Of a stretch of DNA of 60,485 nucleotides, positions 36 through 60,485 are shown piece by piece (position 1 is the stretch's first letter; every line of letters begins with the position of its first letter). The translations under genes and the position numbers were made by a program. The DNA lies in the IMG/VR virus record IMGVR_UViG_2671181056_000013, positions 1 to 60,485 of that record; one strand, written 5' to 3'. The notes beneath the pieces are model-generated. The model was not told the origin of the DNA. It saw only the letters and a list, made by a program, of their open reading frames with translations, and made no database searches. Source of the stretch: a virus (lineage: Duplodnaviria > Heunggongvirae > Uroviricota > Caudoviricetes).

Positions 36-497
36 CTAAATCAGTAAGTTGGCAGCATCACCGCCACTTTCCAGTTCTTCCACCCAGGCCTGCGGGACAC
101 TGAAATCGAGACGAAAAACCCCGATATCCCAGGTATAGCTCCCACCCTGAACAAGTTGCTCAAATGTTAAACATTGCTTACCGCTGGCGAAGTTATCGCT
201 ATTAATGCCTAACCGCTTGATAACTTCTCTTGATAAACATGTTTCTTGCGGGTTGTCTTTAACAATAATCTCATATTTCCCGCGCCATTGCTTATTGACA
301 TAAATATCGATGTCATACTGCCCCGGTAAGGGTTGATTATCATCAAGACGAATATTTGCAACCTGCTGGTCTTTCATTCCACCTATCATAAAATGGGTAT
401 CAAAGGTTTCTTCAGCTGCATAAGCTTCAATGCCGAGCAATAACGCTACGATTGCTGATGCAAGTGGGGTCATTCTCAACATAGGCAGCTCCTGCAA
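36..497 (-). CDS. yehB: fimbrial usher, N-terminal 153 codons only (signal peptide plus N-terminal domain); ORF stops 35 nt from window edge
   Basis: Translation has a signal peptide and usher N-terminal-domain-like sequence, and sits directly downstream of the chaperone gene as in chaperone-usher operons. A TAG at 36-38 ends it far short of a full usher. Confidence 0.5.
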   Translation of the reverse strand: MQELPMLRMTPLASAIVALLLGIEAYAAEETFDTHFMIGGMKDQQVANIRLDDNQPLPGQYDIDIYVNKQWRGKYEIIVKDNPQETCLSREVIKRLGINSDNFASGKQCLTFEQLVQGGSYTWDIGVFRLDFSVPQAWVEELESGGDAANLLI

Positions 498-1217
498 TTA
501 AATTTTGTCACTAATATAGTTGCCATGGTCATCGATAATGGTCAGATGCCAGTTATTTGCATTATTACTTTTGACATTAACACTCTGACTTTCTAAGGGG
601 GCAATCATAATAGTTTCATAATTGACTTTGACATTATTAGCTTTGACATCCGAGATCGTCACCCAATTAGCTGAGTCATTTTTTATCACCAAACCATTGC
701 CACTGCGATTTACCAGCAATTTTTTAAATGTCGCTTTATTTACCGGAGCAATACCCGCTGGTCGGTAAAACAACTTAATTCTGTTTTGCATCGCAAACTT
801 CAGTGCATTCTTACCTTCTTGCTCTGGACTATTTGGTGGAATATCCAGAACATTCAGATAAAAAATGCTTTCTTTATTAGTGGGCAGTTTATTCGGCATA
901 ATTTTGATTTTTACTTGCTGCCCGGAATTTGCCCCTATTTTTGCCACTGGTGGCGTTAACATGAAAGGAACCTGAATTTTTTCTGGTGGTAATGACGTAT
1001 CGCCATCATCAATCCACGCCTGCAGCAGCGAAGAACGGTTTCCCTGGTTCATCAACTGCACCATCACTTCTTTATTTTCTGCCGGGTAAATAATGCGCGT
1101 CCCGTAGATAACAATTCCGGCATGTGCAGGAAGGACCATAGAAAAAATGAGTAAAGATAATAATCCTTTCATTTTAATGCCTCTTAAATTAAAAGGCCGC
1201 CATGGGATAGCGGCCAT
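498..1217 (-). CDS. yehC: periplasmic fimbrial chaperone (PapD-like)
   Basis: 239 aa with signal peptide and a PapD/FimC-like N-terminal motif (GIVIYGTRIIYP); lies between subunit and usher genes. Confidence 0.85.
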   Translation of the reverse strand: MAAIPWRPFNLRGIKMKGLLSLLIFSMVLPAHAGIVIYGTRIIYPAENKEVMVQLMNQGNRSSLLQAWIDDGDTSLPPEKIQVPFMLTPPVAKIGANSGQQVKIKIMPNKLPTNKESIFYLNVLDIPPNSPEQEGKNALKFAMQNRIKLFYRPAGIAPVNKATFKKLLVNRSGNGLVIKNDSANWVTISDVKANNVKVNYETIMIAPLESQSVNVKSNNANNWHLTIIDDHGNYISDKI

Positions 1218-1251
1218 GTTTATTACCTGGAGAAACTTACAATTTTATTTA

Positions 1252-1794
1252 TTAATCCTGCGCCACACGCATAACCAGAGAAGATAACACATCACCTGAT
1301 TGCACTGAGTTATCTGTCAGTTTCAGGTATTTTGCTTTAAACGGAATAGCATATTGACCTTCCGCTGTTTTATAACTCTCAATGTTAAAAGGTGCAGAAA
1401 CATCCAGGACATCGCTGTTATCACCTAAATAGAGATAGTAACCCACGGTATCGTTGCTACTGGCTATCGCCTTATCGTTACCGGTTATTTTATCGTTGGT
1501 AATCAACGAGAGTTTTACACCAGCAACTTCTTTCGGGCAGCTAATTTTTAACATGCTGCTGGTTACACCGACTGCATCATCATAGGTAGAATATTTAGCT
1601 TTACCTTCAAAGACAGTGGTTGGTACAGTCGGCATATTAATACTTACTGAATCACCACCCGCTTCGAATTTACACGGAGATTCTGCAATATTCCCCTTAA
1701 TAGTTAATGTTCCGGTATCAACGTCTGCAGCAAATACTCCAGCGCTCATAAAAAAAGAAGAAAAGACAGCGGCAGCAATAATTGAACGTTTCAT
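1252..1794 (-). CDS. yehD: fimbrial major subunit
   Basis: 180 aa with signal peptide and fimbrillin-like sequence; first gene of the operon, AT-rich upstream region. Confidence 0.8.
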   Translation of the reverse strand: MKRSIIAAAVFSSFFMSAGVFAADVDTGTLTIKGNIAESPCKFEAGGDSVSINMPTVPTTVFEGKAKYSTYDDAVGVTSSMLKISCPKEVAGVKLSLITNDKITGNDKAIASSNDTVGYYLYLGDNSDVLDVSAPFNIESYKTAEGQYAIPFKAKYLKLTDNSVQSGDVLSSLVMRVAQD

Positions 1795-2035
1795 AATATG
1801 TTCCTTAATAAAATTTTTTTTGGTTGTTAAGAGTCTGTATCTCTTGGAAACAAATTTCTCACATCAAAAAAGTTACCGCAATGTAAACACATTGTTTTAT
1901 TTATTTGAAACAAATTAACCATTGCAATATAAATACAACAAATATTTAAGAGTATTAACTATTTATCGCATCTATCAATTAATGTAGATTTATGTAAATG
2001 GTATTGTTGATATCAATAAAAATCAGGTTGCCAAA

Positions 2036-2317
2036 TTAATCGTAGCGATTTAACACGATTCGACGTTTGCTATCGCTACCTGCAACAACCACTTCTGTCG
2101 TTACACCTTTGACGGGCGAAGAAAACAGATGACGGGTGTCAACATTATACGTTAACTGACCACAATGCGGTTGAGGTTGACCATTAACCATAGCCATACT
2201 GCATGTTGGGGGACTGATCCTGCCATTAATCGCTAATGTGGCAGTCTCTGAAGAGAATGCGGGAGAAGCCAATCCATAGGCAAGAAAAATAATTCCTGAC
2301 AGCCAATACTTATTCAT
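2036..2317 (-). CDS. yehE: small secreted protein, YehE-like
   Basis: 93 aa ORF with N-terminal signal peptide between the fimbrial operon and mrp, matching the E. coli gene order yehD-yehE-mrp-metG. Confidence 0.6.
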   Translation of the reverse strand: MNKYWLSGIIFLAYGLASPAFSSETATLAINGRISPPTCSMAMVNGQPQPHCGQLTYNVDTRHLFSSPVKGVTTEVVVAGSDSKRRIVLNRYD

Positions 2318-2561
2318 TGAAGGTTATGCCTGGATAGAATGAGTGCATAACAAACTATAGCTGTACATCCACTACACAGCCACGAAGGATGATAATGAAG
2401 CATTGCCTGTATGATCAATCGACTTTGTAGAGTTTCGGACGAAGGTCCGCAGAATATTCGCAGTATTAAATAAGTGTTCATTAATGCGGCAAAAACTAAT
2501 ACACCGCATCAATGTAACATCTCTGCGGTGTATGAAGAATAACCAGAATGGTTAATAGGCG

Positions 2562-3671
2562 TTAGACCGCGCGGAAGGAAATCTCGCCTGGAATGACTTC
2601 ACCCTGCCAGTAGAGCTGAGCTGCAACGCGGTCAGCCAGCTGGCGGTAGATAGCGGTAAATTCGCTCTCCGGACGGCTGATAACCGTTGGCGTGCCTTTA
2701 TCGAGATCCTCACGTAAGGAGATGTGTAACGGCATCTGCCCCAGCAGCTGTGTGTGGTATTTTTCAGCCAGTTTCTCTGCACCACCGGTACCGAAAATCG
2801 GTTCATGGTGACCACAGTTACTGCAAATATGCACACTCATGTTCTCGACAATACCAAGCACCGGAACCTCGACTTTCTCGAACATCACAATGCCTTTTTT
2901 CGCATCGATCAAAGCGATGTCCTGCGGGGTGGTGACCACGACTGCACCAGTTACTGGAATGTTTTGCGCCAGCGTCAATTGAATGTCACCGGTGCCTGGC
3001 GGCATATCAAGCACCAGATAGTCGAGATCCGGCCACAAGGTTTCCTGCAACATCTGCATTAACGCCTTGCTCGCCATCGGTCCACGCCACACCATCGCAT
3101 TGTCGTCAGTGACCAGATAACCAATTGAATTGGTTGCCAGGCCATGAGACATAATCGGTGCCATATGGGTACCGTCCGGCGAAGTTGGACGCTGATTTTC
3201 TGCGCCCAGCATGGTGGGAATTGATGGGCCGTAGATATCGGCGTCCAGAATGCCGACTTTCGCCCCTTCCGCCGCCAGTGCCAGCGCCAGGTTTACCGCC
3301 GTGGAGGATTTACCCACGCCGCCTTTACCGGAACTGACCGCAATGATGTTCTTCACACCATTAATACCCGGCTGATTCTTCACGCGTTTTAAGGTGGCGA
3401 TATTGTGCGACAGTTTCCAGTCGATAGCTTTCGCCCCGGTGATACGCAGCAGTTCGGCGCTACATTGCTCTTTTAACTCTTCAAACGCGCTATGCCAGAC
3501 GAATGGCATAACCAGTTCCACATGCAACGTGTCGTCCATCCAGGCGACATGGTGCAACGCGTTCAGCGTGGTGAGGTTATGCTTCAGGGTTGGGTGCTGA
3601 AAATTGGCCAGTGTCCCGGCGACCATTGCGCGCAAGGCTTCTGGTGATTTGGCCTGGGATTGTTCGTTCAT
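2562..3671 (-). CDS. mrp: Fe-S cluster carrier ATPase Mrp/ApbC, copy 1
   Basis: P-loop GKGGVGKS and CxxC motif. Start set at MNEQSQ (369 aa); the ORF track begins 10 codons further upstream. Confidence 0.9.
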   Translation of the reverse strand: MNEQSQAKSPEALRAMVAGTLANFQHPTLKHNLTTLNALHHVAWMDDTLHVELVMPFVWHSAFEELKEQCSAELLRITGAKAIDWKLSHNIATLKRVKNQPGINGVKNIIAVSSGKGGVGKSSTAVNLALALAAEGAKVGILDADIYGPSIPTMLGAENQRPTSPDGTHMAPIMSHGLATNSIGYLVTDDNAMVWRGPMASKALMQMLQETLWPDLDYLVLDMPPGTGDIQLTLAQNIPVTGAVVVTTPQDIALIDAKKGIVMFEKVEVPVLGIVENMSVHICSNCGHHEPIFGTGGAEKLAEKYHTQLLGQMPLHISLREDLDKGTPTVISRPESEFTAIYRQLADRVAAQLYWQGEVIPGEISFRAV

Positions 3672-3802
3672 CCCGACTCCTTTTTTGTATAGATAAACCA
3701 TCAGCTGATAGTTTACCTGAAGAATATAGAGAAGTACTTACTTAACATTTTCCCATTTGGTACTATCTAACCCCTTTTCACTATTAAGAAGTAATGCCTA
3801 CT

Positions 3803-5221
3803 ATGACTCAAGTCGCGAAGAAAATTCTGGTGACGTGCGCACTGCCGTACGCTAACGGCTCAATCCACCTCGGCCATATGCTGGAGCACATCCAGGCTGA
3901 TGTCTGGGTCCGTTACCAGCGAATGCGCGGCCACGAGGTCAACTTCATCTGCGCCGACGATGCCCACGGTACACCGATCATGCTGAAAGCTCAGCAGCTT
4001 GGTATCACCCCGGAGCAGATGATTGGCGAAATGAGTCAGGAGCATCAGACTGATTTCGCAGGCTTTAACATCAGCTATGACAACTATCACTCGACGCACA
4101 GCGAAGAGAACCGCCAGTTGTCAGAACTTATCTACTCTCGCCTGAAAGAGAACGGTTTTATTAAAAACCGCACCATCTCTCAGCTGTACGATCCGGAAAA
4201 AGGCATGTTCCTGCCGGACCGTTTTGTGAAAGGCACCTGCCCGAAATGTAAATCCCCGGATCAATACGGCGATAACTGCGAAGTCTGCGGCGCGACCTAC
4301 AGCCCGACTGAATTGATCGAGCCGAAATCGGTGGTTTCTGGCGCTACGCCGGTAATGCGTGATTCTGAACACTTCTTCTTTGATCTGCCCTCTTTCAGCG
4401 AAATGTTGCAGGCATGGACCCGCAGCGGTGCGTTGCAGGAGCAGGTGGCAAATAAAATGCAGGAGTGGTTTGAATCCGGCCTGCAACAGTGGGATATCTC
4501 CCGCGACGCGCCATACTTTGGTTTTGAAATTCCGAACGCGCCGGGCAAATATTTCTACGTCTGGCTGGACGCACCGATTGGCTACATGGGTTCTTTCAAG
4601 AATCTGTGCGACAAGCGCAGCGACAGCGTAAGCTTCGATGAATACTGGAAGAAAGACTCCACCGCCGAGCTGTACCACTTCATCGGTAAAGATATTGTTT
4701 ACTTCCACAGCCTGTTCTGGCCTGCCATGCTGGAAGGCAGCAACTTCCGCAAGCCGACCAACCTGTTTGTTCATGGCTATGTGACGGTGAACGGCGCAAA
4801 GATGTCCAAGTCTCGCGGCACCTTTATTAAAGCCAGCACCTGGCTGAATCATTTTGACGCTGACAGCCTGCGTTACTACTACACTGCGAAACTCTCTTCG
4901 CGCATTGATGATATCGATCTCAACCTGGAGGATTTCGTTCAGCGTGTGAATGCCGATATCGTGAACAAAGTGGTTAACCTGGCCTCTCGTAATGCGGGCT
5001 TTATCAACAAGCGTTTTGACGGCGTGCTGGCAAGCGAACTGGCTGACCCGCAGTTGTACAAAACCTTCACTGATGCCGCTGAAGTGATTGGTGAAGCGTG
5101 GGAAAGCCGCGAATTTGGTAAAGCAGTGCGCGAAATCATGGCGCTGGCTGATCTGGCTAACCGCTATGTCGAAGTGGCCTTAAACAATTTGTTTTCTACC
5201 TTTTCTTGTTCGAGAAAATAA
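3803..5221 (+). pseudogene. metG: metG 5' portion (about 456 codons) fused in frame to phage-like sequence, ending after 16 unrelated codons
   Basis: Class I aaRS motif HLGH and KMSKS are present. MetG-like sequence stops at 5172/5173 where the full copy continues ...RYVDEQAPW; here it reads ...[19 protein letters not shown]. Confidence 0.8.
5183..5220 (+). promoter_or_regulatory. about 40-bp phage promoter-like element, copy 1 of 3 (AAACAATTTGTTTTCTACCTTTT...GAGAAAATAA)
   Basis: A 23-nt stretch is identical to 12203-12225 and near-identical to 16091-16113; possible -35 TTGTTT and -10 GAAAAT/GATAAT. Confidence 0.4.
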
Positions 5222-5253
5222 CGTTCCTTTGTCTGGTGCTATGTACCGATCAG

Positions 5254-5300
5254 TTGCACTGAGTGAGCTTCTTTCATGTATACTGTGTAAATGAACAGTA
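5254..5300 (+). promoter_or_regulatory. sigma70-like promoter (TTGCAC ... TATACT) overlapped by a LexA/SOS box TACTGTGTAAATGAACAGTA
   Basis: CTGT-N8-ACAG palindrome at 5281-5300, matching the LexA consensus at 16 of 20 positions by my alignment, about 17 nt upstream of the umuD'-like start. Confidence 0.65.
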
Positions 5301-5316
5301 TTGAGGGCAAAACGCT

Positions 5317-5706
5317 ATGGGCTTCCCTTCTCCTGCGGCGGATTATGCTGAGAGCCGTATTTCTCTTGATCAGCAGATAATTAGACATCCTTCAGCGACC
5401 TACTTCATGAGAGCAGCTGATAGTCATCATCGTGAGGGAATATTACAGGGTGCATTGCTGGTGGTTGATTCCTCACTTACCCCGGTTGATGGTTCTCTGC
5501 TTGTATGCGCTCTGGATGGGGAATATCGCGTAAAAAGATACCGGAAGTCTCCACGTCAGCATCTGGAGGATTTAAGAACCGGTAAGAAGGAAGCATTGCC
5601 AAAGGATGACGATGGATGCACGGGCAGCAATGCCGTGTTTGGTGTGATCACTCACATTATCAACGACGCAAGAAGTGGCGAGTTTGATGATTGTCCTGTG
5701 ATGTAG
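5317..5706 (+). CDS. UmuD'-like S24 peptidase-family protein, natively starting at the position equivalent to UmuD Gly25
   Basis: MGFPSPAADY...HPSATYF...VFGVITHII aligns with E. coli UmuD from the Cys24/Gly25 cleavage site onward. Good RBS GAGGG; in-frame TGA at 5302-5304 excludes a longer N-terminus. Confidence 0.8.
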   Translation: MGFPSPAADYAESRISLDQQIIRHPSATYFMRAADSHHREGILQGALLVVDSSLTPVDGSLLVCALDGEYRVKRYRKSPRQHLEDLRTGKKEALPKDDDGCTGSNAVFGVITHIINDARSGEFDDCPVM

Positions 5707-5718
5707 GAGAACTGATTA

Positions 5719-5745
5719 GGCGGTGCAATGCACCGCCTTTTTATC
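5719..5745 (+). terminator. intrinsic terminator (GGCGGTGCA-A-TGCACCGCC plus T-run)
   Basis: Perfect 9-bp stem followed by TTTTT, placed between the convergent umuD'-like gene and mrp copy B. Confidence 0.6.
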
Positions 5746-6844
5746 ACACTGCGCGGAATGCGATTTCGCCAGGTATTACTTCACCTTGCCAATACATTTG
5801 GGCAGCAACGCGATCTGCGAGGTCACGATAAATAGCCGTAAATTCGCTATCTGGACGACTAATAACGGTTGGTGTTCCGTTATCCAGATCTTCACGAAGA
5901 GAGATATGAAGTGGCATTTGGCCTAACAACTGCGTGTTGTATTTCTCGGCCAGTTTCTGTGCTCCACCGGTGCCAAAAATTGGCTCGTGATGACCGCAGT
6001 TACTGCAAATATGCACACTCATGTTTTCAACGATACCCAGTACCGGCACTTCGACTTTTTCGAACATCACAATGCCTTTCTTCGCATCGATCAGCGCGAT
6101 GTCTTGCGGCGTAGTTACCACAACCGCACCAGTTACAGGAATGTTCTGCGCCAGCGTCAATTGAATATCACCAGTGCCCGGTGGCATATCGAGAACGAGA
6201 TAGTCCAGATCAGGCCACAGTGTTTCCTGCAACATCTGCATCAGCGCCTTGCTCGCCATCGGTCCACGCCACACCATTGCATTGTCATCGGTGACCAGAT
6301 AACCAATAGAGTTGGTTGCCAGGCCATGAGACATGATAGGTGCCATGTGAGTACCGTCCGGTGAGGTTGGACGTTGGTTTTCCGCGCCCAGCATGGTTGG
6401 AATTGATGGACCATAGATATCGGCATCCAAAATACCAACTTTCGCACCTTCAGCAGCCAAAGCCAGTGCCAAGTTTACTGCTGTGGAGGATTTACCCACG
6501 CCGCCCTTGCCTGAGCTGACGGCGATAATGTTCTTAACGCCATTAATGCCTGGTTGGTTTTTGACGCGCTTAAGCGTGGCAATGTTGTACGACAGCTTCC
6601 AGTCAATAGCCTTTGCGCCAGTGATACGGAGCAGATCACCACTACATTGCTCTTTCAGGTCTTCAAAAGGCTTATTCCACACGAAAGGCATGATTAGTTC
6701 GACATGCAGTGTGTCATCCATCAACGCAACATGGTGTAACGCTTTAAGCGTAGTCAAGTTGTGTTTCAGGGTTGGGTGCTGAAAATTAGCCAGCGTACCG
6801 GCTACCATTGCTCTCAGGGCATCCGGCGATTTGGACTCGCTCAT
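5744..6844 (-). CDS. mrp: Mrp/ApbC, divergent copy B
   Basis: 366 aa with the same motifs as copy 1, but many synonymous and some non-synonymous differences; its flanking non-coding DNA is unrelated to copy 1. Confidence 0.85.
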   Translation of the reverse strand: MSESKSPDALRAMVAGTLANFQHPTLKHNLTTLKALHHVALMDDTLHVELIMPFVWNKPFEDLKEQCSGDLLRITGAKAIDWKLSYNIATLKRVKNQPGINGVKNIIAVSSGKGGVGKSSTAVNLALALAAEGAKVGILDADIYGPSIPTMLGAENQRPTSPDGTHMAPIMSHGLATNSIGYLVTDDNAMVWRGPMASKALMQMLQETLWPDLDYLVLDMPPGTGDIQLTLAQNIPVTGAVVVTTPQDIALIDAKKGIVMFEKVEVPVLGIVENMSVHICSNCGHHEPIFGTGGAQKLAEKYNTQLLGQMPLHISLREDLDNGTPTVISRPDSEFTAIYRDLADRVAAQMYWQGEVIPGEIAFRAV

Positions 6845-7001
6845 CCCGTCTCCTTTATTTTAATTTGCGCAATTGTCGCCTTGTAGTGTACTCCAGCTAC
6901 GACATTTAATCATTTATGAGAAATGCTGTTATCACATGGCAGACATAAGGCCATTTTGTTACTATCAAGCCCCTTTTCACTACAAAGAAGTAATGCCTAC
7001 T

Positions 7002-8837
7002 ATGACCCAAGTCGCGAAGAAAATTCTGGTGACGTGCGCGCTGCCGTACGCTAACGGCTCAATCCACCTCGGCCATATGCTGGAGCACATCCAGGCTGAT
7101 GTCTGGGTTCGTTACCAGCGAATGCGCGGCCACGAGGTTAATTTCATCTGTGCCGACGATGCCCACGGTACGCCAATCATGCTGAAAGCACAGCAGCTTG
7201 GTATCACACCGGAACAGATGATTGGCGAAATGAGTCAGGAACATCAGACTGATTTCGCAGGCTTTAACATCAGCTATGACAACTATCACTCGACGCACAG
7301 CGAAGAGAACCGTCAGTTGTCCGAGCTTATCTACTCTCGCCTGAAAGAAAACGGTTTTATTAAAAACCGCACCATCTCACAGCTGTACGATCCGGAAAAA
7401 TGCATGTTCCTGCCGGACCGTTTTGTAAAAGGCACCTGCCCGAAATGTAAATCCCCGGATCAATACGGCGATAACTGCGAAGTCTGCGGCGCGACCTACA
7501 GCCCGACTGAACTGATCGAGCCGAAATCGGTGGTTTCTGGCGCTACGCCGGTAATGCGTGATTCTGAACACTTCTTCTTTGATCTGCCCTCTTTCAGCGA
7601 AATGTTGCAGGCATGGACCCGCAGCGGTGCGTTGCAGGAGCAGGTGGCAAATAAAATGCAGGAGTGGTTTGAATCCGGCCTGCAACAGTGGGATATCTCC
7701 CGCGACGCGCCATACTTTGGTTTTGAAATTCCGAACGCGCCGGGCAAATATTTCTACGTCTGGCTGGACGCACCGATTGGCTACATGGGTTCTTTCAAGA
7801 ATCTGTGCGACAAGCGCAGCGACAGCGTAAGCTTCGATGAATACTGGAAGAAAGACTCCACCGCCGAGCTGTACCACTTCATCGGTAAAGATATTGTTTA
7901 CTTCCACAGCCTGTTCTGGCCTGCCATGCTGGAAGGCAGCAACTTCCGCAAGCCGACCAACCTGTTTGTTCATGGCTATGTGACGGTGAACGGCGCAAAG
8001 ATGTCCAAGTCTCGCGGCACCTTTATTAAAGCCAGCACCTGGCTGAATCATTTTGACGCTGACAGCCTGCGTTACTACTACACTGCGAAACTCTCTTCGC
8101 GCATTGATGATATCGATCTCAACCTGGAGGATTTCGTTCAGCGTGTGAATGCCGATATCGTGAACAAAGTGGTTAACCTGGCCTCTCGTAATGCGGGCTT
8201 TATCAACAAGCGTTTTGACGGCGTGCTGGCAAGCGAACTGGCTGACCCGCAGTTGTACAAAACCTTCACTGATGCCGCTGAAGTGATTGGTGAAGCGTGG
8301 GAAAGCCGCGAATTTGGTAAAGCAGTGCGCGAAATCATGGCGCTGGCTGATCTGGCTAACCGCTATGTCGACGAGCAGGCTCCGTGGGTGGTGGCAAAAC
8401 AGGAAGGCCGCGATGCCGACCTGCAGGCAATTTGCTCAATGGGCATAAACCTGTTCCGCGTGCTGATGACTTACCTGAAGCCGGTACTGCCGAAACTGAC
8501 CGAGCGCGCAGAAGCATTCCTCAATACAGAACTGACCTGGGATGGTATCCAGCAACCGCTGCTGGGCCACAAAGTGAATCCGTTCAAAGCGCTGTATAAC
8601 CGCATCGATATGAAGCAGGTTGAAGCACTGGTGGAAGCGTCTAAAGAAGAAGTGAAAGCAGCTGCCGCGCCAGTTACTGGCCCACTGGCAGATGATCCGA
8701 TTCAGGAAACCATCACCTTTGACGACTTCGCAAAAGTTGACCTGCGCGTGGCGCTGATCGAAAACGCAGAGTTTGTTGAAGGTTCTGACAAACTGCTGCG
8801 CCTGATGCGGTGTATGAAGAATAACCAGAATGGTTAA
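7002..8837 (+). CDS. metG: methionyl-tRNA synthetase copy B, truncated after about codon 601 and read through into 10 junction codons
   Basis: Near-identical to the other metG copies except scattered SNPs. Junction at 8805/8806 joins metG to sequence equal to 2524 onward. The ORF-track N-terminal extension (6873-6992) is treated as artefact. Confidence 0.8.
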
Positions 8838-8843
8838 TAGGCG

Positions 8844-9953
8844 TTAGACCGCGCGGAAGGAAATCTCGCCTGGAATGACTTCACCCTGCCAGTAGAGCTG
8901 AGCTGCAACGCGGTCAGCCAGCTGGCGGTAGATAGCGGTAAATTCGCTCTCCGGACGGCTGATAACCGTTGGCGTGCCTTTATCGAGATCCTCACGTAAG
9001 GAGATGTGTAACGGCATCTGCCCCAGCAGCTGTGTGTGGTATTTTTCAGCCAGTTTCTCTGCACCACCGGTACCGAAAATCGGTTCATGGTGACCACAGT
9101 TACTGCAAATATGCACACTCATGTTCTCGACAATACCAAGCACCGGAACCTCGACTTTCTCGAACATCACAATGCCTTTTTTCGCATCGATCAAAGCGAT
9201 GTCCTGCGGGGTGGTGACCACGACTGCACCAGTTACTGGAATGTTTTGCGCCAGCGTCAATTGAATGTCACCGGTGCCTGGCGGCATATCAAGCACCAGA
9301 TAGTCGAGATCCGGCCACAAGGTTTCCTGCAACATCTGCATTAACGCCTTGCTCGCCATCGGTCCACGCCACACCATCGCATTGTCGTCAGTGACCAGAT
9401 AACCAATTGAATTGGTTGCCAGGCCATGAGACATAATCGGTGCCATATGGGTACCGTCCGGCGAAGTTGGACGCTGATTTTCTGCGCCCAGCATGGTGGG
9501 AATTGATGGGCCGTAGATATCGGCGTCCAGAATGCCGACTTTCGCCCCTTCCGCCGCCAGTGCCAGCGCCAGGTTTACCGCCGTGGAGGATTTACCCACG
9601 CCGCCTTTACCGGAACTGACCGCAATGATGTTCTTCACACCATTAATACCCGGCTGATTCTTCACGCGTTTTAAGGTGGCGATATTGTGCGACAGTTTCC
9701 AGTCGATAGCTTTCGCCCCGGTGATACGCAGCAGTTCGGCGCTACATTGCTCTTTTAACTCTTCAAACGCGCTATGCCAGACGAATGGCATAACCAGTTC
9801 CACATGCAACGTGTCGTCCATCCAGGCGACATGGTGCAACGCGTTCAGCGTGGTGAGGTTATGCTTCAGGGTTGGGTGCTGAAAATTGGCCAGTGTCCCG
9901 GCGACCATTGCGCGCAAGGCTTCTGGTGATTTGGCCTGGGATTGTTCGTTCAT
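8844..9953 (-). CDS. mrp: Mrp/ApbC, copy 2 (identical to copy 1)
   Basis: Translation is identical to 2562-3701; the DNA repeat runs from 8806, offset 6282 from copy 1. Confidence 0.9.
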   Translation of the reverse strand: MNEQSQAKSPEALRAMVAGTLANFQHPTLKHNLTTLNALHHVAWMDDTLHVELVMPFVWHSAFEELKEQCSAELLRITGAKAIDWKLSHNIATLKRVKNQPGINGVKNIIAVSSGKGGVGKSSTAVNLALALAAEGAKVGILDADIYGPSIPTMLGAENQRPTSPDGTHMAPIMSHGLATNSIGYLVTDDNAMVWRGPMASKALMQMLQETLWPDLDYLVLDMPPGTGDIQLTLAQNIPVTGAVVVTTPQDIALIDAKKGIVMFEKVEVPVLGIVENMSVHICSNCGHHEPIFGTGGAEKLAEKYHTQLLGQMPLHISLREDLDKGTPTVISRPESEFTAIYRQLADRVAAQLYWQGEVIPGEISFRAV

Positions 9954-10084
9954 CCCGACTCCTTTTTTGTATAGATAAACCATCAGCTGATAGTTTACCT
10001 GAAGAATATAGAGAAGTACTTACTTAACATTTTCCCATTTGGTACTATCTAACCCCTTTTCACTATTAAGAAGTAATGCCTACT

Positions 10085-12118
10085 ATGACTCAAGTCGCGA
10101 AGAAAATTCTGGTGACGTGCGCACTGCCGTACGCTAACGGCTCAATCCACCTCGGCCATATGCTGGAGCACATCCAGGCTGATGTCTGGGTCCGTTACCA
10201 GCGAATGCGCGGCCACGAGGTCAACTTCATCTGCGCCGACGATGCCCACGGTACACCGATCATGCTGAAAGCTCAGCAGCTTGGTATCACCCCGGAGCAG
10301 ATGATTGGCGAAATGAGTCAGGAGCATCAGACTGATTTCGCAGGCTTTAACATCAGCTATGACAACTATCACTCGACGCACAGCGAAGAGAACCGCCAGT
10401 TGTCAGAACTTATCTACTCTCGCCTGAAAGAGAACGGTTTTATTAAAAACCGCACCATCTCTCAGCTGTACGATCCGGAAAAAGGCATGTTCCTGCCGGA
10501 CCGTTTTGTGAAAGGCACCTGCCCGAAATGTAAATCCCCGGATCAATACGGCGATAACTGCGAAGTCTGCGGCGCGACCTACAGCCCGACTGAATTGATC
10601 GAGCCGAAATCGGTGGTTTCTGGCGCTACGCCGGTAATGCGTGATTCTGAACACTTCTTCTTTGATCTGCCCTCTTTCAGCGAAATGTTGCAGGCATGGA
10701 CCCGCAGCGGTGCGTTGCAGGAGCAGGTGGCAAATAAAATGCAGGAGTGGTTTGAATCCGGCCTGCAACAGTGGGATATCTCCCGCGACGCGCCATACTT
10801 TGGTTTTGAAATTCCGAACGCGCCGGGCAAATATTTCTACGTCTGGCTGGACGCACCGATTGGCTACATGGGTTCTTTCAAGAATCTGTGCGACAAGCGC
10901 AGCGACAGCGTAAGCTTCGATGAATACTGGAAGAAAGACTCCACCGCCGAGCTGTACCACTTCATCGGTAAAGATATTGTTTACTTCCACAGCCTGTTCT
11001 GGCCTGCCATGCTGGAAGGCAGCAACTTCCGCAAGCCGACCAACCTGTTTGTTCATGGCTATGTGACGGTGAACGGCGCAAAGATGTCCAAGTCTCGCGG
11101 CACCTTTATTAAAGCCAGCACCTGGCTGAATCATTTTGACGCTGACAGCCTGCGTTACTACTACACTGCGAAACTCTCTTCGCGCATTGATGATATCGAT
11201 CTCAACCTGGAGGATTTCGTTCAGCGTGTGAATGCCGATATCGTGAACAAAGTGGTTAACCTGGCCTCTCGTAATGCGGGCTTTATCAACAAGCGTTTTG
11301 ACGGCGTGCTGACAAGCGAACTGGCTGACCCGCAACTGTACAAAACCTTTACTGATGCCGCTGAAGTGATTGGCGAAGCATGGGAAAGCCGCGAATTTGG
11401 TAAAGCTATCCGTGAAATCATGGCATTGGCTGACCTGGCTAATCGCTATGTCGATGAACAGGCTCCGTGGGTGGTGGCGAAGCAGGAAGGTCGCGATGCA
11501 GATCTGCAGGCGATTTGCTCTATGGGCATTAACCTGTTCCGCGTGCTGATGACGTACCTGAAACCGGTACTGCCGAAACTGACTGAACGTGCAGAAGCAT
11601 TCCTGAATACAGAACTGACCTGGGATGGTATCCAGCAACCGCTTCTGGGCCATAAAGTGAATCCGTTCAAGGCACTGTATAACCGTATCGATATGAAACA
11701 GGTGGAAGCACTGGTGGAAGCATCCAAAGAAGAAGTGAAAGCCACAGCTGCACCGGTAACTGGCCCACTGGCTGACGAACCGATTCAGGAAACCATCACC
11801 TTTGACGACTTCGCCAAAGTTGACCTGCGTGTGGCGCTGATTGAAAACGCGGAGTTTGTCGAAGGTTCTGACAAACTGCTTCGCCTGACGCTGGATCTCG
11901 GTGGTGAAAAGCGTAATGTCTTCTCAGGCATCCGTTCCGCTTATCCAGATCCACAGGCACTGATTGGTCGTCACACCATTATGGTGGCTAACCTGGCACC
12001 ACGTAAAATGCGCTTCGGTATCTCTGAAGGCATGGTGATGGCTGCCGGTCCTGGCGGGAAAGATATCTTCCTGTTAAGCCCGGATGCTGGTGCTAAACCT
12101 GGCCACCAGGTTAAGTAA
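10085..12118 (+). CDS. metG: methionyl-tRNA synthetase, full length (677 aa)
   Basis: Complete ORF including the C-terminal tRNA-binding domain. The 3' third differs at many sites from copies 1 and B. Confidence 0.9.
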
Positions 12119-12140
12119 TTAAACAACCTCTCTTCGCAAT

Positions 12141-12166
12141 GCCCGGCAACACGCCGGGCATTTTCA
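12141..12166 (+). terminator. intrinsic terminator of metG (GCCCGGC-AACAC-GCCGGGC plus T-run)
   Basis: 7-bp GC stem followed by ATTTTC, 23 nt after the metG stop. Confidence 0.7.
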
Positions 12167-12201
12167 TATAGACACAATCCCTCCTGATTTACACAAGCCC
12201 T

Positions 12202-12240
12202 AAAACAATTTGTTTTCTACCTTTTGTTGATTGAGATAAT
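12202..12240 (+). promoter_or_regulatory. about 40-bp phage promoter-like element, copy 2 of 3; apparent left edge of the phage region
   Basis: Same 23-mer as at 5183; sits between the metG terminator and the first phage-like gene. Confidence 0.4.
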
Positions 12241-12279
12241 AAGCCACATAAGAAAACAACTTGTTTTGGAGTAGTTGAA

Positions 12280-12579
12280 ATGTTGAACATTACCCAAGCC
12301 TACCAGGTGGCATTGATCAGTTCATCTCATACATCAGAGGAAGATGCTCGCCGATTCATGATCGCAAGCAATGAGCTGGATTGGGTTTCACAAATTGAGT
12401 ACGGTTGCATTGTCCACGCCGGGTTACAGGACGATGACTGGAAAGATGAGTTGCGTCGATATGGTATATCCGAGGGTGCGATTGCGAACATTCAGAAAGT
12501 ACTTGATGTAGGCTTTAACTCTGTACATTTTGATTGTGGCGCACCGGTCGTTGAAGGGCTTGAGTGCTGGCAATGGTAA
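12280..12579 (+). CDS. hypothetical early protein (99 aa)
   Basis: ORF with GGAG RBS, preceded by the GAAAACAAnTTGTTTTC palindrome. Confidence 0.55.
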   Translation: MLNITQAYQVALISSSHTSEEDARRFMIASNELDWVSQIEYGCIVHAGLQDDDWKDELRRYGISEGAIANIQKVLDVGFNSVHFDCGAPVVEGLECWQW

Positions 12580-12899: not shown

Positions 12900-13700
12900 T
12901 ATCAATAGGTTATGGTTGTTTATACCAATAAGAAAACAACTAAATAACAGATCAACGAAACATCAACGCTTTCTCCCGATTTGGTCTAAAAAATTGACGT
13001 TATCACACATCACTTCTTATACCCGTAATTCTACGCAGCAGATAGCGCCACAGCGTCCAAATTTCACCACAGACGACTCAACACACTACCAACAAAAACA
13101 CACGCTCAAAATCGCTCCCGTTGCGTTACACAACCATATAAACAACTTATTTTCAGGCATAACAAAACAACCAAATAACACATATGCCATTACCCAAAAC
13201 AACCAACCTCTTTATGGCAGGCTACCGAAAAGACCCACCTCTTCTCCCCAGGCTACCGGACAACCAACCTAACTTTCACAGGCAATCCGAAAACATTCAT
13301 ACGCGCGATACCCACGACACGCCATTACCCAAACAGCGAAGAAACACCTGAACCGCTGAAACCCTAACGAAGCCTGTAACCGCAAGGTTTCTCTCAATCC
13401 CAAAAGACACGAAACATAACAATCACGGGAAACGCCATTACCCAATACACGAATAACTACAAAAGCCTTCACACACTCCAGACAAACAACTCAAACACAA
13501 TAACGAAAGCAATCGCCCACCTGCCATTACTCCATACACGGAGAAGAACAATCACCAAAACGACGAGAACACCCCCATAGAAGAACCACCGCAAAACTAA
13601 CGAAACCACATACACCGACAGAGAAAACAACACACCCAATTCACCAACAGAAATAGTCGCCGTATAGAACATTCTGGAAGGAGTGAGCATTAACGCCTAT
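12900..13700. repeat. G-poor, CA-rich non-coding tract with dispersed GCCATTACCCA and CAGGCTACCG...CCCACCT repeats
   Basis: Top strand is almost devoid of G for about 800 bp. Four GCCATTAC(C/T)C copies near 13186, 13321, 13433, 13523; two CAGGCTACCG copies at 13217-13273. The only ORF translates to low-complexity sequence. Confidence 0.6.
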
Positions 13701-18489: not shown

Positions 18490-19140
18490 TTACGCTTTGA
18501 AAGCGTCAGCTAGATAATTGTAGAAATCATTCTTGATAAAGCGATATTGCTGTGTACCAGCTTTGGCGCTTCCCATTCCTTTGACTTTCTCAACAAGTCC
18601 GAGACGTTCGCAAAGATTGATTAGCTGGTTAGCTTGAGTATAGCCAGCGTCCAATTTAATTTCACACGCTTTTTTAGCTTCATTCATTAAATCGAAAACA
18701 GCGCCATTCGTGAACGTGTCGATCTCGTCGTTAATCATATCGATTAAAGCGAATACACGAGATCCAGACATATCAGCGACGGAATAAACACATTTTCCAG
18801 CTTTAATTGATTTAACCAGATAAACCAGTTTTTCCAGTGAATAACTATTAGTCATAGCGTCACGAAAAAATACTTCTGGCGCTTGTTTGCTTGCTTTAAT
18901 CGCATAGTAGAAAACAGAGCATAATTTTTCGTCTTCTACAGCGTTTACGACGTTGTTGATGAAGTAAGCAAGTTTAGTGGTCGCAGCTTGCATATTTGCT
19001 TTGTCTGCTTTAGTGTGCGTACCATTTTTATAATGTTCGTTATATGTTTGAGTTGCCAGATCTGCTTTTTCGCGCAGTTCGTCGGATACAATAGATGCAG
19101 CTTCAATGATGGACTTTTTAGAAATGATAATGTTAGCCAT
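18490..19140 (-). CDS. hypothetical protein (216 aa)
   Basis: ORF with a long AT-rich upstream region (19141-19400). Confidence 0.6.
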   Translation of the reverse strand: MANIIISKKSIIEAASIVSDELREKADLATQTYNEHYKNGTHTKADKANMQAATTKLAYFINNVVNAVEDEKLCSVFYYAIKASKQAPEVFFRDAMTNSYSLEKLVYLVKSIKAGKCVYSVADMSGSRVFALIDMINDEIDTFTNGAVFDLMNEAKKACEIKLDAGYTQANQLINLCERLGLVEKVKGMGSAKAGTQQYRFIKNDFYNYLADAFKA

Positions 19141-19437
19141 GATTTTATTCCTTAGTATAAATATTAAAATTTAACTCAAGAAAGAAAGTGTTTTGCACTC
19201 GTTCCTGATGCGTTCAATTATCGATACGCGAAAAAAGATTGCAAGTGTTTTTTTAAGTTTTTTTGCAGGGATGAAAGTCCTAGAAATAAATGTTAGATCG
19301 TCGAGGGTGTTCCCTAAATAAATAATCGATTCCGGCTTTAGACCTTATATATTTATACGGGGTAGAATTGAAAGAGTATAAAATGAATGGCATGTAAAAT
19401 AATAACCGGACTTAGCCGGTTATTACCCTTATAGAAA

Positions 19438-19959
19438 TTAAAACGGAAGGATTCGTTCAACCCAATCGAAGAAAATAAGTATTTTTCTACCGTCTTCCAA
19501 CTTAAGTGTGACTAGACAGGCGTCAACGCCATCTGACGTTCCCTCAATTTCGCGACCGTCTGCCATGTAGACCCTTATAGATTTGCCGTTTTGGTAAGCC
19601 TGACGACATATCTTAAAAAAGTCACGACGTGATGGCTGATTAACCATCTGTTCATTGTTTAGCGTTAGTCGACCTGTGAATGAAGTGTCAACCTCTTCTA
19701 TGCCCGACTCAATTGTGCTAATGCGCTCAAGAGGGAGCCTTATACGATTTGTGTTGCTAAGCGGATCTGGTGTGAGGTTCAGCTTATTTCTTGCGCTCAA
19801 TAGCCCGTAGACATACATGCAAAACACTTGGCCGTCTTCGAGAGTGACTCTTACAGGAAATTTTGCACTCCGCCAGAAGAGCAAGGTACGTTCAGCATGT
19901 TCGTAGTCTCGCGGCCATACTTCAGCCGGTATGCCGTAGGTGATGTCCAATGTTCTCAT
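19438..19959 (-). CDS. hypothetical cytoplasmic protein (173 aa), translationally coupled to the upstream secreted protein
   Basis: ATGA overlap with the 19956-20549 ORF; a hairpin plus T-run terminator at 19396-19424 on the minus strand. Confidence 0.6.
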   Translation of the reverse strand: MRTLDITYGIPAEVWPRDYEHAERTLLFWRSAKFPVRVTLEDGQVFCMYVYGLLSARNKLNLTPDPLSNTNRIRLPLERISTIESGIEEVDTSFTGRLTLNNEQMVNQPSRRDFFKICRQAYQNGKSIRVYMADGREIEGTSDGVDACLVTLKLEDGRKILIFFDWVERILPF

Positions 19960-26885: not shown

Positions 26886-28141
26886 TGGCAATCCCGTCCT
26901 CGCTCAGTCTTGTGCAACTGCATTCTGGACAGATGAAAGTCTTCCAGTCTCCGCATCGATTTAAAGTTGTTTGTGCTGGTCGACGCTGGGGAAAATCCCG
27001 GTTGTCGATCTCCACTATTATTCGTGCGGCGGCAAAGGAAAAAAAGCAAAGAGTCTGGTATGTCGCTCCTACTTACCAGATGGCTCGCCAGATTTTGTGG
27101 GACGATCTACAGGAAGTTCTGCCTCGTAAGTGGGTTAGGAAAAAGAACGACACCACGATGACAATCGTGTTGAAGAACGGTTCGGAGATCGCCCTCAAAG
27201 GTGCTGATAAGCCTGACACTCTGCGCGGCGTAGCGTTGCATTTTGTAGTGCTTGATGAATTTCAGGATATGAAGGCTGACACCTGGTACAAGGTGTTACG
27301 ACCTACTCTTTCATCGACACGCGGCGGTGCACTGATCATTGGTACGCCAAAAGGCTTCTCGGAATTTCACAAACTGTGGACTATAGGCCAGAACGTAGAG
27401 CTGCAAAGAAAGGGACAGTGGAAGAGCTGGCAGTTTGTAACTGCCGATTCTCCGTTTGTACCTACGGCGGAAATTGAAGCTGCTAAGAACGATATGGACC
27501 CGAAATCGTTCGCTCAGGAGTACCTGGCGAGCTTTGAGAACATGTCCGGGCGCGTTTACTACCCGTTCGATCGTAACGTGCATGTAAAACCGCTTCAGTT
27601 CAACCCTCGGTTGCCTATATGGGTAGGGCAGGACTTCAACATTGACCCGATGTCTTCAGTAATTTTGCAACCTCAGCCAAATGGTGAGCTATGGGCAATT
27701 GATGAATTGGTGCTCTTTTCCTCTAACACGGCAGAAGTTTGTGATGAGCTTGAGAGACGCTTCTGGCGCTGGAAATCACAGGTAACGGTATTTCCAGATC
27801 CGGCAGGTGCTTATCGCCAACATGCTCGTGGGGAGTCTGACGTAGACATATTCAAAGAGAAGGGATTCTTACGTGTCGATTATTCGAAAAAGCACCCGCC
27901 AATTGCGGATCGTGTTAATGCTGTTAACCGAATGCTGATGTCCGCATCTGGAGATATCCGGCTGTATATCGATCCGAAGTGCAAGCATTTGATTGATTCA
28001 CTGGAAAAAGTCATCTACAAGCCTGGAACACGAGATATGGATAAGACAGGTGGCATTGAGCATAGTGCAGACGCATTGGGCTATCCAGTACATCGTAGGT
28101 ATCCAGTAAAAAATCGTGTTATTCTTGGTGGTTCTCGATAG
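26885..28141 (+). CDS. terminase large subunit
   Basis: Walker A AGRRWGKS and Walker B VVLDEF in the N-terminal ATPase; nuclease-like C-terminal half. Confidence 0.85.
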   Translation: MAIPSSLSLVQLHSGQMKVFQSPHRFKVVCAGRRWGKSRLSISTIIRAAAKEKKQRVWYVAPTYQMARQILWDDLQEVLPRKWVRKKNDTTMTIVLKNGSEIALKGADKPDTLRGVALHFVVLDEFQDMKADTWYKVLRPTLSSTRGGALIIGTPKGFSEFHKLWTIGQNVELQRKGQWKSWQFVTADSPFVPTAEIEAAKNDMDPKSFAQEYLASFENMSGRVYYPFDRNVHVKPLQFNPRLPIWVGQDFNIDPMSSVILQPQPNGELWAIDELVLFSSNTAEVCDELERRFWRWKSQVTVFPDPAGAYRQHARGESDVDIFKEKGFLRVDYSKKHPPIADRVNAVNRMLMSASGDIRLYIDPKCKHLIDSLEKVIYKPGTRDMDKTGGIEHSADALGYPVHRRYPVKNRVILGGSR

Positions 28142-59339: not shown

Positions 59340-60485
59340 ATGAGCCTTTATGTTATATCAACATTTAGATTGGTCACAATATTGCCTGTTAAAAGTGGAA
59401 TTATCGTGAGCGAGCTGAAAGAGCTAATTGCCGAATTAGATTTTGAACAATGGTTGGATACTGAAGGTATCGTTTATCGACGTGGAGGCGTGAGTACTCG
59501 CGGTCGTGAAGTGAATATCAAGGAGTGTCCGGTATGCGGCAGCTCCAACTGGAAGGTATATTTCAATCTGACCAGTGGCGTCGGCAAATGCTTCGCTGGT
59601 GATCATCCCGAAGAGATTCAGTTCAATAAGCTGGTCTTCCTCAAGCACTACAGCGGTAAATCACGACGACAGTTCGAGGAATATGTGCAGAACGCTCTTC
59701 TTTCCCAGGGGTGGGCACCAAAGAAAGAAGAGCTAGTGCTTGCAAGCACAGTCGAGTTAGAGGGGCCAGTTGCACTCCCTCGTCATTACGAGCTTCCTAT
59801 AGATGGCCGTCTTCCAGATTATCTGGTTGAACGAAACATATCACCTGAAATGGCAAAGTATTTTGACCTACGATACTGCGTCGAAGGCAAGCACGCTTAT
59901 GTAGATCCGTATACAGATCAGGTAAAAGGGCAGATATTCGATATGCGAATACTGATACCGGTTTACGATCTGGATGGGGTAATGAAGACATTTCAGGGAC
60001 GAGACATTACCGGTACAGCAGAACGCCGCTACCTCTTTCCTATGCAGCTTCCAGCTTCAGGTAAATTTCTCTACAACGGCCATAATGCAGTCGGCAAACA
60101 GACTGTAGTTGTCTGTGAGGGTGCGTTCGATGTTATGGGGGTCAAACGAGCTATTTTCGACGAAGAAACATTACGTGATTACGTGGAGCCAATAGGAACG
60201 TTCGGGATGCATCTATCTGGCAACACCACTCAGGATGCAGAAGATCAGTTGGGCGCGTTCCTGACGCTCAAGGCGCGTGGATTACGTAATGTGATCATGA
60301 TGTGGGATAGTGAAAAGCAAGCTATACGCAACACGATGGCCGCAGCCAGGCGACTGACCAGTATCGGTCTTAATGTCAAAGTTGCGTGTTTGGGTGAGGA
60401 AGGACTCGACCCGGGCGGTGCAACGCCAGAACAAATTATCAAAGCCTATTATCGGTGGATTTGCCCCTATATTTCCAGACACCTG
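59340..60485 (+). CDS. DNA primase (zinc ribbon plus TOPRIM), 3' end beyond the window
   Basis: CPVCGSS...KCFAGDH zinc-binding motif and TOPRIM-like VVVCEGAFDVMG. The frame is open from ATG 59340 (alternative GTG 59406) to the window end. Confidence 0.75.
   Translation, partial: MSLYVISTFRLVTILPVKSGIIVSELKELIAELDFEQWLDTEGIVYRRGGVSTRGREVNIKECPVCGSSNWKVYFNLTSGVGKCFAGDHPEEIQFNKLVFLKHYSGKSRRQFEEYVQNALLSQGWAPKKEELVLASTVELEGPVALPRHYELPIDGRLPDYLVERNISPEMAKYFDLRYCVEGKHAYVDPYTDQVKGQIFDMRILIPVYDLDGVMKTFQGRDITGTAERRYLFPMQLPASGKFLYNGHNAVGKQTVVVCEGAFDVMGVKRAIFDEETLRDYVEPIGTFGMHLSGNTTQDAEDQLGAFLTLKARGLRNVIMMWDSEKQAIRNTMAAARRLTSIGLNVKVACLGEEGLDPGGATPEQIIKAYYRWICPYISRHL

Follow-up and report, generated by a model that had tools for sequence, protein, structure and literature searches.

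Chromosomal and phage-plasmid sequences meet inside metG, upstream of the metG terminator, in a Shigella sonnei draft contig

The 60,485 bp stretch of DNA analysed here (the window) is the complete draft contig CXFJ01000012.1 of the Shigella sonnei assembly GCA_001255095.1, and contains 0 Ns. It opens with chromosomal yeh genes, continues through three copies of apbC (mrp) and metG, and then runs in phage-type DNA to its right end; both ends are insertion sequence termini. An exact-protein look-up returns the MetG product of 10085–12118 as a recorded Shigella sonnei methionyl-tRNA synthetase. The segments to either side of the repeated apbC-metG region are:

1–62, no strand: left contig end, made up of 62 terminal nt of an IS1 inserted in yehB and identical to the IS1A end in the E. 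coli chromosome reference
63–2523, minus strand: chromosomal yehB’-yehC-yehD-yehE, with 98.5% identity to the E. coli chromosome reference, from gene calls and Pfam
11312–60455, plus strand: phage-plasmid DNA from plasmid alignment, with the metG 3’ end, early genes, a ParB-like pair, helicase, terminase, portal, capsid, tail and lysis genes, a DnaB-like helicase and primase
60456–60485, no strand: IS2-like (IS3-family) terminus at the right contig end; the plasmid alignment stops at 60455

The same IS1 insertion site forms the end of contigs from two other S. sonnei assemblies. At the right, the IS2-like end breaks into the phage primase region, as comparison with the reference plasmid NZ_CP045933.1 shows, and the last 32 nt of the window occur 9,422 times in E. 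coli genomes, annotated as IS3/IS2 transposase. A contig flanked in this way by IS copies is typical of a short-read Shigella draft. An Rfam scan of the window gives no family reaching threshold, and a tandem repeat scan of 12–22 kb returns one weak 23-nt array only.

The right-hand 49 kb are almost indistinguishable from a known plasmid. Alignment of 11312–60455 to the closed circular S. sonnei plasmid NZ_CP045933.1 (pAUSMDU00010534_01, 108,107 bp) shows, over 49,144 nt, a single mismatch and a single gap (99.996% identity; plasmid coordinates 76229 to 27085). The segment from 12120 to 60485 is also collinear with the circular Escherichia phages CMS-2020a and PhiR41_1 (95–98% identity), with Cyrano (92–95%) and with Salmonella phage SSU5 (79–81%), although SSU5 aligns only from about 26,100 of the window onward and DNA-level sharing of the cargo and early region is not seen with this phage. 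SSU5 and pHCM2, CMS-2020a, PhiR41_1, Cyrano and p09EL50 have collinear structural, replication and partition modules, and all are circular episomes. We assign the element from these alignments to the SSU5 family (SSU5-supergroup) as a pWPMR2-like phage-plasmid; the pWPMR2-type phage-plasmids of S. sonnei correspond to clade K (bioRxiv 10.1101/2025.09.12.675607). The collinear records are annotated with ParB/RepB/Spo0J and ParB/Srx genes as well as ATPase genes, and one window gene has a ParB_N Pfam match. An earlier reading made from the sequence alone had suggested either a phage-plasmid with partition genes or a virulent-type genome; the collinear plasmid records and the ParB_N match bear out the former, and the latter can be set aside. 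That reading also had phage DNA continuing for more than 48 kb toward the window end, and it does so as far as 60455, where the IS2-like terminus begins; the other phage end had been expected in sequence beyond 60485, but the window is the entire contig, ending inside the phage, and nothing lies beyond it. Of 5,426 complete E. coli genomes, 260 contain the structural module of this phage; its 430 occurrences there are all on plasmids and 0 are chromosomal, and the closed S. sonnei relatives are plasmids of 107–108 kb.

The features around the position at which phage genes follow metG, with the metG stop at 12118, are:

12141–12167, plus strand: metG rho-independent terminator of the plasmid allele, GCCCGGC-AACAC-GCCGGGC followed by ATTTTCAT
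12166–12290, plus strand: native intergenic control region between the cargo metG and the DUF5983 gene, found exactly in the closed circular plasmid and in one plasmid-size contig
12203–12218, plus strand: operator-like palindrome AAACAATTTGTTTTCT, upstream copy, from a motif count
12251–12266, minus strand: second, inverted copy (AGAAAACAACTTGTTT on the plus strand), lying 13 nt ahead of the DUF5983 start codon and directly before a GGAG ribosome-binding site
12280–12579, plus strand: gene for a 99-aa DUF5983 protein (Pfam PF19419, 47.5 bits), the first phage early gene

Identity to the chromosome falls to 36–38% past approximately 12149 and identity to the phage remains at 98–100%. Because chromosome homology ends at the terminator, the phage genes appear to begin about 115 bp past metG, and the sequence-only reading was right to place the start of the early genes at this distance, since the terminator ends at 12167 and the first open reading frame (DUF5983) starts at 12280. 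Its further proposal that the phage genome abuts a chromosomal metG terminator does not hold, however, because the 3’ 800 nt of metG, the terminator and 12119–12300 are themselves phage-plasmid DNA, the last of these being base-for-base identical to the closed circular plasmid NZ_CP045933.1. We thus regard 12166–12290, on the evidence of the aligned plasmid sequences, as native phage DNA forming the fixed right-hand boundary of the cargo, with neither a chromosome/phage junction nor an att site. An att-site reading of this interval is ruled out by the exact identity of 12119–12300 to the closed plasmid.

The control elements in this interval resemble those of other phage genes. The motif AAACAAnTTGTTTTCT has a palindromic 13-bp core, AAACAA-n-TTGTTT, and the window contains 12 copies as compared with 0.07 expected, all in phage-type DNA; the operator-like motif is located just upstream of a ribosome-binding site and ATG before at least six other phage genes as well. 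We infer that it is a recurrent early-gene operator, presumably bound by a dimeric phage repressor. The two inverted copies between metG and DUF5983 bracket a promoter, with the ribosome-binding site and the DUF5983 gene following. A simple promoter and terminator scan called neither the DUF5983 promoter nor the metG terminator, both of which are read from the sequence.

In circular PhiR41_1, p09EL50 and pAUSMDU00010534_01 the gene order is toprim, S24 peptidase, apbC/mrp (on the opposite strand), metG, DUF5983 and small early genes, and metG is continuous with DUF5983 in these three and in circular CMS-2020a. Because free circular relatives carry the module in one piece, apbC-metG is phage-plasmid cargo, a status that had been proposed for mrp-metG from the sequence and is confirmed by this gene order. 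The homology between cargo and chromosome starts inside the 3’ end of apbC and stops at the metG terminator (12141–12167), and this homology is the sole link of the element to the chromosome. The S24 peptidase, apbC/mrp, metG and the metG terminator form an old captured module in the pWPMR2-like family. Carriage of metG by a phage-plasmid in S. sonnei is already published and the arrangement is known; in the account given in PMC12452169, Tam et al. (medRxiv 10.1101/2024.10.27.24316207) describe phage-plasmid-borne metG in S. sonnei (pWPMR2) and link it to antimicrobial survival. The window resembles pWPMR2 and pAUSMDU00010534_01 in 49 kb of sequence, in the S24-apbC-metG-DUF5983 cargo arrangement and in having an extra plasmid metG. 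Unlike pAUSMDU00010534_01-type plasmids, the contig writes plasmid sequence as contiguous with chromosomal yehBCDE, has an IS2-like end in the primase region, and contains apbC-metG in triplicate with two novel joins.

The triplicated region lies upstream of the DUF5983 boundary and is interrupted by two non-homologous joins, J1 (5172/5173) and J2 (8805/8806). The three metG copies (A, B and C) were phased at 115 sites where chromosomal metG (E. coli reference) and the S. sonnei plasmid metG differ:

2501–2531, minus strand: apbC/mrp terminator hairpin, ACACCGCA-15 nt-TGCGGTGT, read from sequence
2524–5172, plus strand: copy A, with chromosome-type apbC (2562–3671, minus strand) and metG nt 1–1370 (from 3803); all diagnostic SNPs are chromosome-type
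3803–5172, plus strand: metG copy A, chromosome-type throughout, to nt 1370
5172–5174, no strand: join J1, with metG nt 1370, an orphan base A (5173) and then phage-plasmid DNA; no microhomology
5174–7512, plus strand: phage-plasmid segment with S24, plasmid-type apbC and metG copy B nt 1–511; 0 mismatches in 2,339 nt to NZ_CP045933.1
5182–5197: operator-like palindrome in the phage-plasmid segment
5317–5706: S24/UmuD-like gene (Pfam PF00717)
5744–6844, minus strand: plasmid-type apbC
7002–8805, plus strand: metG copy B, plasmid-type to nt 511 and chromosome-type from nt 675 to nt 1804
7513–8805, plus strand: remainder of metG copy B, nt 512–1804, chromosome-type at every diagnostic site from nt 675
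8805–8806, no strand: join J2, where metG nt 1804 meets arm TGCGGTGT of the apbC terminator hairpin (corresponding to 2524), without microhomology
8806–11311, plus strand: chromosome-type part of copy C, an exact repeat with apbC (8844–9953, minus strand) and metG nt 1–1227 (from 10085)
10085–12118, plus strand: metG copy C, chromosome-type to nt 1194 and plasmid-type from nt 1228
11279–11311, plus strand: the true switch zone from chromosome-type to plasmid-type in metG, 33 nt that do not differ between the alleles and lie between the SNPs at nt 1194 and nt 1228

The change from chromosomal to phage-plasmid sequence is therefore located inside the third metG copy, between diagnostic SNPs that are 34 nt apart. 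Compared in 100-nt windows, the chromosome-type part of this copy agrees fully (100%) with the E. coli chromosomal reference. Although B and C are both hybrids, they are not reciprocal, since B switches from plasmid to chromosome at nt 512–674 and C from chromosome to plasmid at nt 1195–1227; both are chromosome-type over nt 675–1194 and they are identical over nt 512–1227. The exact hybrid MetG protein is found in only five contigs. Two other S. sonnei assemblies contain a simple yehBCDE-apbC-metG(hybrid)-phage join with the switch at nt 997–1127, as compared with nt 1195–1227 here, such that the switch point varies among assemblies. The plasmid metG alleles are themselves mosaic, which suggests recurrent exchange with chromosomal metG.

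Neither join has a ready parent. The duplicated block starts at 2524, exactly at an arm of the apbC terminator hairpin, and the phage-plasmid DNA to the right of J1 begins at the 3’ arm of another terminator hairpin, AAGGCCAC-TAGTT-GTGGCCTT. The metG open reading frame of copy A closes at 5221 with a 15-aa foreign tail, and that of copy B, which starts at 7002, closes at 8837 with an 8-aa foreign tail; no truncated MetG fusion protein (475-aa, 472-aa and 611-aa versions) is on record in exact-protein look-ups. A 36-mer spanning J1 is absent from GTDB representative genomes by exact search, and the J1-to-J2 block (4900–9100) has no one-piece match in 5,426 complete E. coli genomes and 72,556 PLSDB plasmids, its matches in the same search being ordinary phage-plasmids only, in two pieces. 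The exact repeats are extensive: 2524–5029 equals 8806–11311 (2,506 nt), copies A and B are the same over metG nt 512–1370 (859 nt), and B and C over nt 512–1227 (716 nt). Because repeats of 0.7–2.5 kb exceed the reach of short reads, which cannot choose among paths across them, the order of the apbC-metG copies is unreliable and the contig order as printed carries little weight.

We think it probable that the element is episomal, and that its link to the chromosome reflects ambiguity of the assembly path through a shared repeat; of the two alternatives in the sequence-only reading, a contig join is thus the more likely. The contig leaves chromosomal sequence (yehBCDE-apbC-metG 5’) and enters plasmid sequence inside metG, at 11279–11311, and the apparent continuity of chromosome and phage would be an unresolved or arbitrary path through sequence carried on both replicons, perhaps the product of the assembler alone. 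The draft contig is bounded by repeats, and its switch lies inside a stretch that the two replicons share without difference. Other assemblies break at such places: many plasmid-size contigs are interrupted within metG, and the starts of seven coincide with stretches identical to the chromosomal allele or fall no more than about 20 nt away. Because plasmid-size contigs break in it, metG behaves as an inter-replicon repeat in assembly graphs. Copy A retains intact chromosomal metG past the switch point, which simple integration would not leave. Collection blocks containing the DUF5983 protein number 2,418 and those with the adjacent 61-aa protein 2,906, and neither protein is on any contig larger than 200 kb.

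Within this episomal reading the contig could have arisen in two ways. A purely artefactual contig seems rather unlikely; a plasmid that is really rearranged is a fair contender, if still short of an even chance. The joins J1 and J2, which are without counterpart in either parent and have left sides that fall off repeat boundaries, count against an assembly path, as does the 33-nt identical stretch, which is too short for de Bruijn merging unless k is 33 or less. Because an unrearranged genome gives no read pairs linking the sequences at J1 and J2, an origin by scaffolding alone is awkward and some real rearrangement is plausible. Pure de Bruijn bubble-collapse as the source of the mosaic fails on J1, on J2 and, if k exceeds 33, on the 33-nt switch, and we keep it as a sub-scenario. 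Where a rearranged plasmid is involved, the plasmid of this isolate may have taken up a chromosomal copy of apbC-metG and doubled a part of its cargo, in which case J2 and J1 would be the novel junctions. The contig can be written as the segment path a-N-m-c1-J1-x-m-c1-c2-J2-N-m-p, and the same path edges fit two structures equally: an intact chromosome together with a rearranged plasmid, or a chromosomal cointegrate. In the first structure the chromosome would be intact, J1 would mark a tandem duplication on the plasmid, and J2 would mark the capture of chromosomal apbC-metG by the plasmid.

The second structure, a true chromosomal cointegrate of Hfr-like type, is possible but on balance unlikely. 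It would arise by RecA recombination between chromosomal metG and the approximately 95% identical plasmid metG, placing the whole phage-plasmid beside yehBCDE-apbC, with a heteroduplex or gene-conversion tract (metG nt 512–1227) accounting for the non-reciprocal switches and with later illegitimate events at J1 and J2 duplicating parts of the junction. The contig as written does read chromosome, apbC, metG (chromosome-to-plasmid hybrid) and phage, and the reciprocal-type hybrid predicted by homologous integration (S24, plasmid apbC, and metG switching from plasmid to chromosome) is in the contig as well. Both hybrids of a Campbell-type pattern (C and B) are thus present, but B stands to the left of C and, truncated at nt 1804, leads through J2 into a second chromosomal apbC and not into the chromosomal right flank; reciprocal switch points of the Campbell type are not found in copies B and C, but a conversion tract could still explain this. 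Copy A moreover preserves an unrecombined chromosomal metG path to nt 1370, and three rare events are needed in all, to be read from a short-read contig in which the order of kilobase exact repeats is unreliable. J1 and J2 are, for their part, hard to obtain by scaffolding from an unrearranged genome.

Evidence from other records also falls on both sides of the cointegrate. The same kind of left join occurs in the two other S. sonnei assemblies with their different switch point; plasmid-type ApbC is encoded on contigs larger than 200 kb in approximately 0.8% of collection blocks, two of these being chromosome-sized records; WSWW01000001.1 and ABVVIT010000001.1 read phage, S24, plasmid apbC, metG and DUF4132 chromosomal genes; and contigs of the right-join type are found in E. 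coli drafts of 371–574 kb. The mosaic plasmid metG alleles, suggestive of repeated exchange with chromosomal metG, fit as well. Rare integrase-independent chromosomal capture of phage-plasmids has been reported (PMC12977533), with seven capture regions in 32,798 assemblies, 0 of which were assigned to the SSU5_pHCM2- or pSLy3-type group. Against this, none of the 260 complete E. coli genomes with the phage has a chromosomal copy (0/260), the closed S. sonnei relatives are 107–108 kb plasmids, and the hybrid MetG is confined to its five contigs. The record CP043541.1 is chromosome-sized and contains the phage.

If the join is real, the mechanism would be that of Hfr and F-prime formation, RecA recombination between shared sequences with no site-specific recombinase, and J2 resembles an aberrant-excision or duplication junction. 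F normally uses IS copies, whereas here the homology would come from cargo, an essential housekeeping gene that has diverged to about 95% identity. Were the joins real, they would be a documented case of a phage-plasmid recombining with the chromosome, at a locus with a tie to antimicrobial tolerance, and would indicate that cargo genes can provide the homology for integration. A true cointegrate would make housekeeping cargo a portable homology arm by which a phage-plasmid enters and leaves the chromosome without an integrase; J1 and J2, as local duplication or aberrant excision, would have left three metG and two chromosomal-type apbC copies, and F-prime-like pick-up of flanking genes could change the dosage of a gene linked to antimicrobial survival.

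We consider it very unlikely that the structure comes from mixed template or a similar error, either two clones or a recombinant subpopulation sequenced together, or library chimeras formed at hairpins and used by the assembler. To the right of both J1 and J2 the sequence starts with a terminator hairpin’s 3’ arm, an orphan base sits in J1, and microhomology is absent from both joins, all of which would suit such an origin. End-points of deletions and duplications at hairpins are also known in vivo, however, and this counts against library chimeras.

As had been observed from the sequence, the first 10 kb or so of the phage holds small open reading frames only, with no recombinase domain on record, and the tyrosine recombinase of the family has no tblastn match in the window. 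NZ_CP045933.1 does encode one (PF00589, 38.7 bits; plasmid coordinates 18,629–19,732), mid-genome and approximately 7.4 kb past the contig end point. Because all closed relatives are episomal despite carrying it, this recombinase probably resolves plasmid multimers, by analogy with P1 Cre. A classical site-specific prophage, in which 12166–12290 would be a hybrid attL or attR with the recombinase and the other att site outside the contig, finds support in that recombinase gene but is scarcely credible, since 12119–12300 is identical to a closed circular plasmid and hence contains no hybrid site, all free circular relatives run unbroken from the metG 3’ end through the terminator to DUF5983, the switch lies inside metG within homologous DNA, and the closed relatives are all episomal even with the recombinase present. 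The earlier view that this is not a classical integrase-mediated prophage is upheld, 12119–12300 being free-plasmid sequence with no hybrid attL or attR.

The arrangement has a partial parallel in e14 in icd, a prophage with a duplicate 3’ end of its target gene, where a phage-borne copy of a host gene likewise lies at the apparent junction. In the e14 type an integrase acts on an att core inside the gene and only a 3’ fragment is carried, whereas here complete apbC and metG are present with their own promoter region; unlike e14-type junctions, the interval 12166–12290 is not a recombination site. This interval is itself ordinary, the native cargo boundary of a described phage-plasmid, and only the triplication merits follow-up. 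More generally, when a plasmid carries a second copy of a housekeeping gene, short-read contigs are joined or broken there, in a manner that can be misread as prophage insertion, and the duplication of metG on the plasmid also confounds SNP calling in metG.

Plasmid-borne metG alleles in E. coli (records L009-L018) combine chromosome-type with plasmid-type sites in a mosaic pattern, as defined relative to the S. sonnei pair, and this suggests that the cargo metG and the chromosomal metG have undergone repeated gene conversion. The plasmid apbC is far more diverged from its chromosomal counterpart (77-90% nucleotide identity) than is the plasmid metG (about 94%). Many plasmid-size contigs from other assemblies (90-109 kb; L022, L023, L025 and L031-L034) start within metG, at about nt 448, 533, 598, 659, 676, 1005 and 1129, and these start points lie in, or no more than about 20 nt from, the longest runs of sequence that match chromosomal metG exactly. 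The plasmid-type ApbC protein is also present on large contigs (L009, L012, L018, L010 and L014), where the following arrangements are seen:

WSWW01000001.1 (483 kb), phage - S24 - plasmid apbC - metG - DUF4132 chromosomal genes
ABVVIT010000001.1 (371 kb), the same order
ENA metagenome scaffold (574 kb), the same order
CP043541.1 (5.57 Mb), internal cargo region flanked by phage DNA on both sides
VCZV01000001.1 (4.89 Mb), internal cargo region flanked by phage DNA on both sides

These could be either real integrations or misassemblies.

Three apbC-metG copies span 2524-12118 of the window, with two joins at 5172/5173 (J1) and 8805/8806 (J2). Microhomology is absent at both, J1 contains an orphan A, and at each join the right-hand side starts with the 3' arm of a terminator hairpin. 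J1 has no match in 5,426 complete E. coli genomes, 72,556 plasmids or the GTDB representatives, and J2 has none in the same E. coli genomes or plasmids. The 472-residue MetG of copy A is cut inside the anticodon-binding region, and copy B (7002-8837) encodes a truncated hybrid MetG of 611 aa, composed of 601 native residues and a short foreign tail and missing the C-terminal tRNA-binding/dimerisation domain. Because E. coli MetRS truncated at its C-terminus is an active monomer, the 611-residue product might be functional if this copy is real.

At the right end of the window (60456-60485) an IS2-like terminus breaks the primase region of the phage at a point that corresponds to position 27,085 of the reference plasmid, suggesting that an IS has inserted in the phage-plasmid of this isolate; such an insertion, if present, would give the element a further way to recombine with the chromosome, which is rich in IS copies. 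The closed circular S. sonnei plasmid NZ_CP045933.1 encodes a tyrosine recombinase (18629-19732) adjoining an HTH regulator, approximately 7.4 kb past the point at which the contig ends, and this gene is absent from the window.

Two repeated motifs are present in the phage-plasmid DNA, one of them within a native non-coding stretch of approximately 700 nt that has a strongly C/A-rich plus strand (AT skew 0.33, GC skew -0.23) and no match in Rfam:

12930-13650, C/A-rich non-coding stretch
13186, 13321, 13434 and 13523, a GCCATTACCCAAAACA-like motif present four times within this stretch
5182, 12203, 12251, 14700, 15185, 16090, 16852, 26172, 26197, 54647 and 57883, palindrome-containing motif AAACAAnTTGTTTTCT

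The AAACAAnTTGTTTTCT motif occurs 12 times in the window against an expectation of 0.07, usually directly 5' of the ribosome-binding site of a phage gene, and is probably a phage operator or 5'-UTR element. The phage-plasmid also has a minus-strand gene (19438-19959) whose 173-residue product belongs to the FljA family, 'repressor of phase-1 flagellin' (PF03614, E = 1.4e-68).
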